A stretch of DNA of 64,000 nucleotides, from contig CAWCAG010000009.1 of NCBI GenBank assembly GCA_963793425.1, positions 416,001 to 480,000 of the forward strand. The letters run 5' to 3'. Under the pieces are notes generated by a model. That model had not been told where the DNA came from, ran no database searches, and worked only from the letters and a program-made list of their open reading frames with translations. Position 1 is the stretch's first letter. Every line of letters begins with the position of its first letter. Origin of the DNA: an uncultured cyanobacterium. Its GTDB lineage: Bacteria > Cyanobacteriota > Cyanobacteriia > Cyanobacteriales > CAWCAG01. The position numbers and the translations under genes are program-made. Below, one piece after another: positions 47,976 through 54,727 of the stretch.

Positions 47976-49703
<1,728 letters not shown>

Positions 49704-49823
49704 GTGCAGAAAATCTACTTTCCCCGTCTGATGATTCTGAAACTATCCGATTAAGAGTTCCCTTGATTTGCTCCGCCCTCTCCTTCCTCACCAACAACCT
49801 CTGCAACTAAACACCAATTTTGT

Positions 49824-50243
49824 ATGACATACTGGGTCAAAGTTGATTACGAGCGCAAAAAATTTGTTGTCGATCTAGAGCGTATCAGTTCTTTTATCTG
49901 CGCTCCTAACGGCAGAATAACTTTTTGGCTACCTGATAGTTCTATACCTGTAATTATTAATAAGAATACTCACGCAGATGATTATAATCAAGTAATTGAG
50001 TATATAAATCAGCTTTTTGGTTCTCCTTTTGGTGGGGCTTGGTTAAGGCTCTTTTATGAACGTAATGAATATGTAATTGATTTGAGTAAGATTAGCAGTT
50101 TTTGTTACTCGGAGCGGGGTAAAATCACTTTTTGGCTGCCGGATAGCGCCACGCCTATTGTGATTAGCAAGCAAAATGATCCTAGTGATTATCAAAAGTT
50201 GCTTGATTTTGTGAGTACGAAAACAGGTTATTCTTTACCTTAA
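49824..50243 (+). CDS. Hypothetical protein made of two tandem ~65-aa repeats
   Basis: YER...DL..ISSF...G.ITFWLPDS..P..I.K....DY occurs twice. Confidence 0.85.
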   Translation: MTYWVKVDYERKKFVVDLERISSFICAPNGRITFWLPDSSIPVIINKNTHADDYNQVIEYINQLFGSPFGGAWLRLFYERNEYVIDLSKISSFCYSERGKITFWLPDSATPIVISKQNDPSDYQKLLDFVSTKTGYSLP

Positions 50244-50280
50244 AGTTGCTAATTGCTAATAGTTTTATCCCTGTTATCTT

Positions 50281-50505
50281 ATGATGACTATATTAGATTT
50301 AAAACCATTAATTAGCTTAACTAAAGAAGATTTTTATCAACTTTGTCGAGCTAATCCAGAAGTACCATTAGAATTAAGTCGCAACGGAGAATTAATTATT
50401 ACGTCTCCAGTGGGAGGAGAAGTTGGTAACAAAGAAGCTGATTTAATTTTTCGTGTTGGTTTTTGGAATCGCCAGAGTAAGCTAGGGTTAGTGTTTAGTT
50501 CCTCA
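50281..50505 (+). pseudogene. Uma2 (DUF820) endonuclease-family N-terminal fragment
   Basis: EDFYQLCRANPE..LELSRNGELII.SPVGG..GN...WNRQSKLG.VFSSS; similarity stops before the catalytic PD motif. Confidence 0.85.
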
Positions 50506-50947
50506 GAGGTTCGCTATTACAATACTAACCTTACTGAAATGGTTAAAATATTAGGCAGAGACCTATTAATGTAGAGGCTAAAGCTATGTCAGGGGATAAT
50601 ATCAGGCAAAAGGCAATTTCGGTATTGGTAACATGAGTGGTGGTGAAATTAAGGATTCTAAAGTTGCTGGAGTTATTAATGAAGCTGAACAACAAAACCT
50701 AGCCCAAGCTGCGGCGGAAATACAGCGATTATTAGAGCAATTGGAAAACTCCTACTCCACAGAAACCACAGCAGGTAAAATGCAACTCGCGACTGAAGCG
50801 ATTACACAGATTGAAAATAATTCTACCCAGAAAGCTAAAGTTATCAGGAGTTTAAAAGCTGGGAGTGTTTCATCGTTTGAGCAGTTTCTTAATCATCCTG
50901 CTGCTAGTTTTGTTATCGCGACGTTAGAGGAATTTCCGAAGAAATGA
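50506..50947 (+). pseudogene. Frameshifted C-terminal fragment of a larger cyanobacterial protein (tail resembling those on pentapeptide-repeat/COR proteins)
   Basis: Across two frameshifts (~50556, ~50600) reads NTNLTEMVKIL/RPINVEAKAMSGDN/QAKGNFGIGNMSGGEIK...QQNLAQAAAEIQRLLEQL. Confidence 0.55.
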
Positions 50948-51446
50948 ATGCTGCCTGAATGCGACGAGGAGCAATTTTTATTGACTCCCCAGGTTCAGGC
51001 GATCGCGTCCTAATCCCTCGATAAAGTACTCTAAATTACAATAATATTTGAAATAGGAGAAGTTTTTAATATACAAGCTGTAGATAATACAATAACTCAA
51101 GTTGAATTTGCTAGTTCTCCAACAGTTTCAACTACCTTATTAGACTATGGCAAAAACTTAGAAAATGCTGAACGTCTCAAAAGTTATTTAACATCTTATC
51201 GATTAATAGACTGATTAATAATTAATATAGCAGTTCTCAATCACATGAGGTACACTAGCATTTTCTAATGCTCCCTACTCCCTCAAACCAAGGTCTTTTG
51301 TACCTAACTAGTACGAGAATTGCTATAATTAATTTACTTTTCGTCACAATTAAAAAAATCCTTGGTGAGAGAAGCTATGTTGAAGACAACACAAATCAAG
51401 TATTTTTTCTCCCAGCAATGAGTAAAATAGTAGCTTCCCCTGAAAT

Positions 51447-52197
51447 ATACAAATACTGCTAGTGGTGTAATTCGCCTCAAACCACAGCAGTTTATTCACG
51501 TTTTAGATAACAACACTGGGGTAACTCGCTTAGAAGTTGGCCCCCAGACAATTACTCTGCAAGATGCAGAAAGATTGGTACTCAAACCAACGCCGATGGT
51601 AGTTGTACCACCCCGTCATTATTGTCTCATTGCTAATCCAGTGTTGCAAAACGTAAGGCTTTACATTTACGGGCTAAACGCACATTCACCGATATTTTCA
51701 ACCGCCAACGTCGGGCTGGGGATGAGTGGCTGGTGACAATTGAAGATGCAGAAATTCATTTACCTGATGTTTATGAGGAGGTGGTGGGGGAAGTAGAAAT
51801 CACTACCCTTAGCGATCGCCTATTGATATTCAATCCGTTGAACCAGTAGATGAAGAGACTTTGAAGAGTTTACAAAAATCTGTGCAAATCGCTATTCAAA
51901 TTACTACCGATGCCCAAGAAGCAGCGGCAAGCCAAGAAGCAGAGTTAGCCCACAAAGAGGCATTGAATGAGTTGGAAGTTGCTAAAGCAGAAAAAATGTT
52001 GGAGATTACAGCCACAGAATATCAACGCAAGGTTAGAGACAATTAAGGCGATCGCACAAGCCGGACTAGAAATGCCAGCGAGGTTGTTGCAAGGTTTAAG
52101 GATTCAAAGTGTTTTGATTACTGATGGTAAGATTCCTCTTAATCTTTTTGGGGCCGCTAATGGTATGATTGGTTTCCCTGAAAGTCAAGATGAGTGA
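51447..52197 (+). pseudogene. Major vault protein (MVP) homolog, multiply deleted remnant
   Basis: 51449-51649: VIRLKPQQFIHVLDNNTGVTRLEVGPQTITLQDAERLVLKPTPMVVVPPRHYCLIANPV. 51652-51819: [55 protein letters not shown]. 51822-52034: [36 protein letters not shown]...LEVAKA. 52036-52197: [13 protein letters not shown]...LITDGKIPLNLF. All collinear with MVP as recalled. Confidence 0.9.
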
Positions 52198-52272
52198 TAC
52201 TTCTGGAAAGAGGTAAGGTAGTTTATCTAGCCTCAAATCTTCTAGCATTAAGGGTATTGCTAAAATAATAAA

Positions 52273-53157
52273 ATGAAAATTTCTGATCTTGGTGAACTTC
52301 TACTCTTAGCTTCCCTTTGGGGGGCTTCTTTCTTGTTTATGAGGATAGCATCTCCTGTATTCGGTCCGGTTTGGCTAATGGAATGCCGGGTTTTAATAGC
52401 CGGATTAGCTTTGCTACCTCTGGTAGTTAAATTGGGTTTGTTAGGAGAAGTGCGCCGTTATGCAAAGCCTCTGTTTATTATCGGTTGTTTTAATGCAGCC
52501 CTGCCATATCTACTTTTTGCCTTTGCTAGTCTCTTTTTACCTGCTGGAGTCACCTCCATTCTCAATGCCACAACGCCCTTATTTGGGAGCATTGTCGCTT
52601 TTATTTGGTTAAAAGAAAAATTTACCTTGAGTAAGATAATCGGGTTAGTATTGGGCTTAGGTGGAGTAGTTGTTTTAGTCGGGTGGCAGAGTTTTGTGGT
52701 TACGCCAAACTCTTTGTTAGCAGTAGGTGGTGTATTGATAGCAACATTAATGTATGCGATCGCTGCCCCTTATATCAAAAAGCAACTCTCCGGAGTTCCT
52801 TCTTTAGTTATTGCCACAGGCAGTTTACTTTTTGCTCCTTTGTTCCTCTTACCTGCTATTCCTTTTACCGTACCAACAACAGCACCAACTCCCATCAGCA
52901 TAATGGCTTTATTTGGACTGGCTTTGCTTTCAACTTCTTTGGCATACATCCTCTATTTTCGCTTAATCAGTAATGTTGGTTCTACCAAAGCTTTAACTGT
53001 CGCTTATTTAATTCCTATCTTCGCAATGCTTTGGGGAGCAATTTTTTTAAAGGAAGCGATTACTGTATCTATGATTTTGGGTTGTAGTTTGGTTTTATTG
53101 GGGACTGCGATCGCTAATGATTTGTTTAAGAGTATGGTTTTAAAAAAGATGTTTTGA
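52273..53157 (+). CDS. DMT/EamA family transporter
   Basis: LWGASFLF, ILNATTPLF, LAYILYFRLI, YLIPIFAMLWG; about ten TM segments. Confidence 0.93.
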   Translation: MKISDLGELLLLASLWGASFLFMRIASPVFGPVWLMECRVLIAGLALLPLVVKLGLLGEVRRYAKPLFIIGCFNAALPYLLFAFASLFLPAGVTSILNATTPLFGSIVAFIWLKEKFTLSKIIGLVLGLGGVVVLVGWQSFVVTPNSLLAVGGVLIATLMYAIAAPYIKKQLSGVPSLVIATGSLLFAPLFLLPAIPFTVPTTAPTPISIMALFGLALLSTSLAYILYFRLISNVGSTKALTVAYLIPIFAMLWGAIFLKEAITVSMILGCSLVLLGTAIANDLFKSMVLKKMF

Positions 53158-53379
53158 AAATTCTCAAACCTTTTTGTTTGGTATTGCCTAATTGTTTGTG
53201 TTATAATTATTTCATCAGATAAAATTCAATCTTAACTAAAAAAATATTTCTTCGGAGCGGGGTTGGGAGCTTTCTTAAAATGGGCATGGAAGGCAAACTT
53301 CTGACCTGACAACTTTTCACCAGAATCACTTAACAGGCATCTCCAAAAATCAAAAACTTAAAAGCCTTTTGTTTTTTAA

Positions 53380-53724
53380 TTAAGGATTGCCGAGAGATTA
53401 CTGATTTCTGGCATTGGTGTAGAAGGTTTCCTGAGTGGTGTTTTTACCTCCTCTGGAGATGAGCAAAACATCAACACGGGTAAGGGAGGAAATATCACTG
53501 TTAACAACTCTGGTACAGTAACTCTCAGCATGGAATGGGCAAGTGTTGACAATGCTGTTGGTAGTAACAATGCAGCTATCACCGAAAAAACCCAAACTCT
53601 TTACCAACAAGCACAAGGTTGGGAAATAACTTCCGATGGTAAGATAATTTTAACCGCAACAGCAACAGAAGTTGCTTCTCATCAAAACCGAATGCAACAT
53701 CCCGATTGTGGTAGCGGAATGTAG
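53380..53724 (+). pseudogene. Remnant of a cyanobacterial filamentous-haemagglutinin-like exoprotein
   Basis: Start-less frame with SGVFTSS...TGKGGNITVN (beta-helix repeat) joined to QAQGWEITSDGKIILTA...C (typical C-terminus). Confidence 0.65.
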
Positions 53725-53755
53725 AAAGTTGAAAATTATCTCCTCTTTTTAATTC

Positions 53756-54727
53756 TCAAGCCTGGGGAGTACTATTATCTCCATACTTAATTAAAAGAGC
53801 GATCGCAATACTAACAGTAAAAATTAGTACCATACTCAAAGCTGAGCCAAAACCCCAATTACGGGTTGCTCCCAAGAATTGGTTATAAATTAAGCGGGAG
53901 ATAGTCATGCTAGAAAGCCCTCCCAAAATTTCTGGATCTACAAAGTCTGCTAAGGAAGAGATAAAGACTAGTAAAGAACCAGCAAAAATACCAGGAAAGG
54001 TTTGAGGGACAGTGATCCTCCAAAAAGTCTCCGCAGGTTTTGCTCCTAAATCCGCAGAGGCTTCTAATAGCTGTTTATCCAACTTTTCAAGAGAAGCATA
54101 GAGAACTAAGACCATATAGGGCAAATAACTGTAGGCCATACCAATTAAAACGGCTGTTTTGCTATACCACAGTGCCAATTCAGGGATGCCAAAAAGACCT
54201 AAAAAGCTATTTAATACTCCCGTCGGACGCAGAATGGTAATCCAAGCATAGGTACGTAACAACGAAGAAGTCCACAGAGGTAAAATAAACCCTAACAACA
54301 GGATATTACGCCAACGTTTCGGGGCCATTTGTGCCAGCCAATAAGCTACAGGAAAGCCTAGAGATAAGCAAATAATGGTGCTGCCAATGGCGAAAAAGAG
54401 CGAGCGACCCAAAACTTTGAGGTAAAGGGGGTTGAGTACTTCTAGATAATTACTAATACCATCCGGATTAACCACTTGCCCCGGTCTAATGCCAGATACT
54501 AAACTCAACTCAAAAATCACCAAAGTTGGTAATATCAGCAGTAAAAGTAACCATAACCCCGCAGGGCCAAGTAAAGTTAATATACCGAACCATTGAGACT
54601 CAGACGGACTCGTTTCTACAGCAACCGCTGATTTTTGGAGTTCGTTATTGACTTCTGGGTTAGATCGGGGAGGAGAAGTAGATTTTTTAGGCACGAGTGC
54701 AATAATATTTAAGGTTAAAGATACCAA
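53756..54727 (-). CDS. potB: Polyamine ABC transporter permease
   Basis: LPLWTSSLLRTYAW, YLPYMVL, EASADLGA (EAA loop), NWGFGSALS. Confidence 0.9.
   Translation of the reverse strand: MVSLTLNIIALVPKKSTSPPRSNPEVNNELQKSAVAVETSPSESQWFGILTLLGPAGLWLLLLLILPTLVIFELSLVSGIRPGQVVNPDGISNYLEVLNPLYLKVLGRSLFFAIGSTIICLSLGFPVAYWLAQMAPKRWRNILLLGFILPLWTSSLLRTYAWITILRPTGVLNSFLGLFGIPELALWYSKTAVLIGMAYSYLPYMVLVLYASLEKLDKQLLEASADLGAKPAETFWRITVPQTFPGIFAGSLLVFISSLADFVDPEILGGLSSMTISRLIYNQFLGATRNWGFGSALSMVLIFTVSIAIALLIKYGDNSTPQA

Follow-up and report, generated by a model that had tools for sequence, protein, structure and literature searches.

Does a short, interrupted region of a cyanobacterial genome hold what is left of a gene for the vault shell protein, the major vault protein (MVP), and if so, how and when was that gene lost? 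We addressed this question in a 64,000-nucleotide stretch of DNA from an uncultured cyanobacterium, which as a whole is called the window here. Translation and homology searches revealed collinear pieces of an MVP gene, in three reading frames, at positions 51446-52194 of the window on the + strand. A sequence-only reading had proposed such a remnant after comparing four peptides with human MVP, and all four quoted peptides were recovered in + strand frames by three-frame translation of 51447-52201. We queried each of the four stop-to-stop stretches bearing these peptides (Table 1) separately against all PDB chain sequences, and the significant matches of all four were MVP chains only, with E values from about 2e-29 to 2e-9. 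These matches, together with Pfam Vault and Vault_2, bear out the MVP identity. A confusion with generic SPFH/flotillin proteins lacking vault repeats, which the same reading had considered, was not seen: no Band_7/SPFH/flotillin family appeared in the Pfam results of any of the four pieces at E values up to 1.

With the blocks named as in Table 1, Pfam Vault (PF01505) matched block B (E 9e-14; 51.6 bits, cut-off 27) and Vault_2 (PF17794) matched block A (E 2.4e-6; 28.4 bits, cut-off 23.6). MVP has nine vault repeats, and approximately two of them are left in the remnant. The third and fourth pieces gave no Pfam match above cut-off, and MVP_shoulder (PF11978) had zero matches anywhere in the host genome. 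The missing shoulder match is as expected for a remnant, because the shoulder domain has been deleted; just its final few residues stand ahead of the cap helix. For comparison, an intact relative (L025) shows four Vault matches, Vault_2, Vault_3, Vault_4 and MVP_shoulder (E 2.5e-52). Matches to the cap helix, the middle of which is deleted, and to the cap ring follow in MVP order, collinear with the repeats.

We then compared the remnant with five full-length MVP genes from related cyanobacterial genomes, by blastn to all five and by gapped DNA alignment to three. Both methods agreed on the blocks and on the deletion sizes: five blocks, A to E, separated by missing DNA of ~493 nt (A/B), ~1046 nt (B/C), 273 nt (C/D) and 14 nt (D/E). 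A profile built from five intact cyanobacterial MVP proteins and run over the host genome likewise hit five collinear pieces, the second at profile positions 245-316 and the others as given in Table 1. By the domain boundaries of the rat structure, we take the surviving parts to be the first repeat and the beginning of the second, a middle repeat, the boundary of shoulder and cap helix, the last part of this helix, and the cap ring. The original stop codon survives at the end of block E. The first, second and fourth deletions shift the frame, whereas the third, of 91 codons, keeps it. For this reason the sequence-only reading, correct in describing collinear pieces in three frames, counted four fragments instead of five blocks, its third fragment holding the in-frame deletion. 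Altogether ~750 nt survive from a gene of ~2640 nt, some 70% having been lost, and the pieces run from the N-terminus to the cap ring, in agreement with the claim that a full-architecture MVP gene of more than 2.6 kb once stood here.

Table 1. Coordinates of the MVP remnant in the window and of decayed MVP copies elsewhere
Feature	Sequence	Position	Strand	Match or remark
Stop-to-stop stretch 1	window	51434-51733	+	rat MVP residues 3-70, E 2.7e-23 (PDB chains)
Stop-to-stop stretch 2	window	51637-51846	+	MVP residues 223-280, E 2.2e-29 (PDB chains)
Stop-to-stop stretch 3	window	51813-52043	+	MVP residues 636-700, E 1.8e-12 (PDB chains)
Stop-to-stop stretch 4	window	51967-52194	+	MVP residues 805-855, E 1.6e-9 (PDB chains)
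Candidate former start ATG	window	51418-51420	+	offset by +1 from the frame of block A
Block A, MVP N-terminus (repeat 1 and start of repeat 2)	window	51446-51653	+	L025 codons ~16-85; profile 14-82
Block B, one middle vault repeat	window	51654-51820	+	L025 codons 249-304; frame differs from block A
Palindrome GCGATCGC	window	51812-51819	strandless	right edge of block B, adjoining the ~1046-nt deletion junction
Block C, last shoulder residues and start of cap helix	window	51821-51929	+	L025 codons 653-688; profile 658-698
Block D, end of cap helix	window	51930-52033	+	L025 codons 780-814; profile 784-821
Block E, cap ring	window	52034-52194, plus stop	+	L025 codons 819-879; profile 824-872
Original stop TGA	window	52195-52197	+	end of block E
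Decayed MVP, Dapis sp.	L099	6001-7271		joins query residue 218 to 641
Decayed MVP, Floridaenema evergladense	L103	6001-7370		joins query residue 64 to 364
Decayed MVP, Okeania hirsuta	L105	6001-7697		joins query residue 429 to 742
Decayed MVP, Moorena bouillonii	L059	6031-8928		~730 nt between matches to residues 457 and 589
Decayed MVP	G100	C2:148685-149069		keeps just profile positions 3-54 and 178-255
Broken MVP gene	G161	C228:27299-28698		

At the 5' end, the frame of block A contains no ATG, GTG or TTG ahead of 51575. The VIRLKPQQ motif is preceded by about 17-27 residues in intact homologues, and an ATG (51418-51420) sits 52 nt ahead of the GTA of this motif in the remnant, a distance that would suit it as the old start. 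The eroded start that the sequence-only reading saw in AT-ACA at 51447 is only one possibility, and the ATG further upstream is an equally good candidate.

The breakpoints of the 273-nt deletion lie exactly 91 codons apart in 27/61 intact genes, namely those in which both motifs were located, and share a median identity of 67% over 21 nt in register in these genes. Random control windows 91 codons apart averaged 27% identity, and 0.2% of them reached 66%. Both breakpoint sites code for A-R-Q-(D/E)-A-E in the cap helix. Since the deletion is flanked by such imperfect direct repeats, slippage or illegitimate recombination between them is its most likely cause, as judged from the homologous genes. 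At the 493-nt junction we found no microhomology, the median in-register identity being 33% (31 of the 61 genes, those with both motifs located), and a VL|VL microhomology considered there is unsupported by this value. A possible CCAAT overlap was seen by eye at the 1046-nt junction. The palindrome at the right edge of block B is one of two GCGATCGC octamers in the remnant; the octamer or a near copy codes for S/G-D-R at the matching place in 5/5 intact genes inspected. This octamer is typical of cyanobacteria.

No single uninterrupted frame of ~850-900 aa is present, and the longest open stretch measures 100 aa. Pieces that lie in three frames and are split by stops mark a pseudogene of the MVP family, not a functional member. 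We conclude, with a probability of about 95%, that 51418-52197 of the window is a dead, heavily deleted and non-functional pseudogene of a cyanobacterial-type MVP. In the history that we propose, an ancestor would have carried an intact ~2.6-kb MVP gene of full architecture, from the vault repeats through shoulder and cap helix to the cap ring. Once MVP was no longer under selection, four internal deletions (~493, 1046, 273 and 14 nt) would have removed some 70% of it, and a small change at the 5' end would have cost it the in-frame start. The outcome would be the present five collinear blocks in three frames, unable to make the vault shell protein.

To date this loss, we aligned the translated blocks, as fragments filling 242 columns, with 61 intact MVP proteins. 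None of the 58 columns invariant in the intact proteins is altered in the remnant; of the 128 columns with a conservation of 95% or more, six are altered, against a median of 1 among intact rows treated alike, the highest of which mostly reach 4-7. Because the surviving codons are almost undamaged, the loss of MVP in the host lineage looks recent, in line with the claim that the lineage carried a full gene until recently. On the rough assumption of ~2.25 non-synonymous changes per codon per unit neutral divergence, neutral divergence since inactivation would be ~2% or less, a rough bound. Bacterial genomes have a deletional bias, and a gene in which point decay has barely begun whereas 70% has been removed by deletion fits that bias.

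The distribution of MVP among relatives was patchy. Of 60 genomes of the same order, five, all from other families, carried intact MVP frames of 878-903 aa. An even sample of 400 other same-order genomes gave Vault matches in 49 (about 12%), and by genus such matches cover 27/142 genera of the order, host genus counted; intact frames in the order span 865-950 aa. The one same-genus genome searched (G001) and the one same-family genome searched (G002) each showed no Vault, MVP-profile or remnant DNA match. Hence the suggestion that relatives would encode an intact MVP is correct for other families of the order and failed in these two closer genomes. A quick maximum-likelihood tree built from 62 bacterial rows placed the remnant inside the cyanobacterial clade, with no starred branch fixing its position. 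Its end branch is long (0.29 versus a median of 0.075) and its closest protein identity is 81% over 242 columns, indicating that the nearest sampled relatives are distant. We found no close intact orthologue, and both the ancestral sequence and the exact breakpoint positions given above are therefore deduced from distant homologues.

A scan of one genome per species yielded 73 MVP loci, most of them in filamentous cyanobacteria, including Moorena, Oscillatoria, Microcoleus, Laspinema, Symploca, Calothrix and Nostoc; cultured carriers among them are, for instance, Moorena producens 3L, Oscillatoria sp. PCC 10802 and Calothrix sp. NIES-2100. Others belong to Thiotrichaceae (Thiomargarita, Parabeggiatoa) and to Chloroflexota MAGs, with 67-72% best-segment identity, and in the 62-row tree these fall together in a starred group of their own, outside the cyanobacteria. 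These sequence relationships suggest that MVP may have been transferred between filamentous mat bacteria, binning errors being possible. Full-length cyanobacterial-type MVP genes were seen at L080, L082, L083 and L098 in Thiotrichaceae (giant sulphur bacteria) and at L084, L085 and L102 in Chloroflexota (Anaerolineae/Chloroflexaceae MAGs). One further locus (L081), from an Actinomycetota MAG by title, shares 81% identity with the query and clusters closely with a Coleofasciculaceae MAG; it is likely a mis-binned cyanobacterial contig. At least five other lineages have MVP copies cut by large internal deletions (Table 1), where G161 may be the same genome as L103. Two more loci (L094 and L101) show single frameshifts, which may be sequencing errors. 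The breakpoints differ between the decayed copies, which points to independent and recurrent losses of MVP.

We also inspected the surroundings of the remnant. Just upstream, at 51220-51328, lies a dispersed ~110-nt repeat that recurs in the host genome with 16 further matches, one at 98% identity, and has several matches in G001; it looks like a small non-autonomous element. A 97-aa ORF at 50281-50574 matches Pfam Uma2 (putative restriction endonuclease) over only profile positions 2-63 of 172 and is probably a truncated gene, in which case the whole of 50281-52197 looks like a patch of decaying DNA. A 139-aa ORF at 49824-50243 consists of two similar ~65-aa halves and has no Pfam match; its region is 92% conserved at the DNA level in G001, where it adjoins CTP synthase. 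On neither side is synteny with G001 preserved: there, the EamA gene and the CTP-synthase flank are on separate contigs, and similarity ends at the borders of the flanking genes. We did not find an orthologous or empty site for the remnant in G001, so decay in place and arrival in an already damaged state are not separable by such a comparison. An all-against-all comparison of flanking ORFs from five intact loci and the window returned no shared neighbour genes. Over 61 intact loci, the largest flanking cluster was of generic PAS/GAF histidine kinases (15/61, at -5568 to +3913), and the other clusters reflect lineage-specific synteny. Conserved partner genes of MVP were therefore rejected, as no neighbour is kept across the 61 loci. 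An Rfam scan of 50900-52400 gave 0 matches at E values up to 1. Promoter-like sites in 51000-52400 numbered 5 against 3.3 expected by chance, with none on the + strand downstream of 51093, and the promoter and terminator counts were near chance.

Could the remnant be something other than a resident gene in decay? That it is an artefact, be it eukaryotic contamination, a mis-assembly, or an SPFH/flotillin/TolA-like gene mistaken for MVP, we regard as having next to no chance. Such a reading draws on the protein pieces being unusually close to animal MVP and on the metagenomic origin of the genome (5.28 Mb in nine contigs, 98.6% complete). However, the blocks are 70-86% identical by blastn at the nucleotide level to MVP genes of cyanobacterial genomes, they contain two copies of an octamer of cyanobacterial character, and the protein matches are to vault repeats without any to Band_7/SPFH. 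The structure itself was recovered in Logan contigs from four runs of one study, contigs in which rare variants are invisible. In 4/4 runs a single contig spans all four junctions gap-free (51467-52207 or further), continuous with the downstream EamA gene. Runs X1, X2 and X3 had 0 differences to the remnant, and run X4 had nine substitutions, all at 52208-52229, downstream of the stop; of the four samples, that of run X4 is the one not flagged as a possible source of this DNA. With every junction bridged in all four runs, an assembly or binning artefact is very unlikely. An intact copy elsewhere in the assembly, for which the sequence-only reading had advised looking, did not turn up; the remnant is the sole Vault or MVP-profile match in the host genome. 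Very improbable too, if a little less so, is that a leftover ORF still makes a small functional protein, either of 76 aa (51967-52197, with an ATG start and the cap-ring segment) or of 61 aa (51861-52046). These ORFs do exist and their MVP-derived residues are well conserved, but recent loss explains that conservation equally well. For its first 23 residues the 76-aa ORF runs through block D in a frame other than that of MVP; within 51000-52400 no promoter-like site was listed on the + strand beyond 51093; and other lineages delete different parts of the gene, leaving no common minimal product.

More credible than either of these, yet still unlikely, is that the remnant arrived already broken by horizontal transfer, or that an intact gene was transferred, never became established and was promptly deleted. 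The patchy occurrence of MVP in the order, the similar copies in Thiotrichaceae and Chloroflexota MAGs, and the lack of a conserved neighbourhood across 61 loci would all agree with a mobile history, as would the position of the remnant beside a dispersed repeat and a truncated Uma2 gene and the absence of any trace of it in G001. On the other hand, all five pieces strictly keep the MVP order, share one orientation and retain the original C-terminus and stop codon, as stepwise deletion of a resident gene would yield, and no transposase or integrase was found among the ORFs of 49500-54000, five of which were Pfam-scanned. We favour, only provisionally, a resident MVP gene that would have decayed by deletion.

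The remnant, at least five independently deleted copies elsewhere and the ~12% presence in the order together suggest that bacterial MVP is dispensable and turns over fast. More broadly, and tentatively, since we hold it somewhat less probable than its opposite, cyanobacterial-type MVP may be accessory: it would pass among filamentous mat-formers from three or more phyla (Cyanobacteriota, Thiotrichaceae, Chloroflexota) and be lost time and again through large deletions, the remnant being a very recent loss. If true, pairs of carriers and fresh losers would be natural experiments on when a bacterial vault pays, and a route to the long-unknown vault function. The remnant itself serves as a marker that the host lineage held an MVP gene until recently, and such turnover is modestly useful for studies of vault origin or function. 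Decisive evidence on whether an intact bacterial MVP forms particles, and on their role, must come from intact orthologues of cultured strains, not from the remnant locus.

How does the remnant compare with vault proteins already known? According to the accessible text of Daly et al. 2013 (PMC3762200), MVPs of the cyanobacteria Lyngbya majuscula, Oscillatoria acuminata and Microcoleus PCC 7113 had been described, with a eukaryote-to-bacterium transfer suggested; the opposite direction is proposed in the available part of Sokolskyi 2019 (bioRxiv 10.1101/872010). MVP homologues in Oscillatoriales-type cyanobacteria have, by these partial texts, been in print since 2013 (PMC3762200; bioRxiv 10.1101/872010), and cyanobacterial MVPs were again catalogued in a 2023 preprint, as far as its accessible portion goes (10.1101/2023.11.10.566534). 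The sequence-only reading hence overstated the novelty of a bacterial vault gene. A passage of PMC9778704 states that vaults are absent in prokaryotic cells, and in the portion of PMC3762200 at hand the assembly of intact bacterial MVPs into a 78-subunit vault shell is an in silico prediction only. The word 'pseudogene' occurs 0 times in the accessible text of PMC3762200 and of 10.1101/2023.11.10.566534. Among the papers listed in literature searches, none described the isolation of a vault particle from bacteria, and none of those listed for Thiomargarita, Beggiatoa, Chloroflexi or Anaerolineae contained the term 'vault protein'. Within the literature covered, what is new here is the evidence of recent and recurrent MVP loss, together with a wider host range of three phyla.

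Overall, the remnant adds a new, decayed member to a bacterial MVP family that is known but has yet to be characterised. It belongs to the same family and clade as the cyanobacterial MVPs of Moorena/Lyngbya majuscula 3L (F4Y3B4), Oscillatoria acuminata (K9TKX8) and Microcoleus sp. PCC 7113 (K9WB38), and intact cyanobacterial MVPs are 70-86% identical to it in nucleotides and at most 81% in amino acids over 242 columns. The published proteins are, in the text available, intact ORFs of ~880 aa, whereas the remnant is ~70% shorter, startless and spread over three frames. Rat and human MVPs (PDB 4hl8, 7pkz, 9z4w and others) are collinear with it, most aligned positions being identical or similar. 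Unlike these eukaryotic proteins, the remnant has a bacterial host and, by boundaries that we take from the rat structure, has lost repeats 2-4 and 6-9 together with most of the cap helix and almost the entire shoulder. The other decayed cyanobacterial copies resemble the remnant in their large internal losses and frameshifts but differ from it in their breakpoints, and among those examined only the copy in G100 is more reduced.
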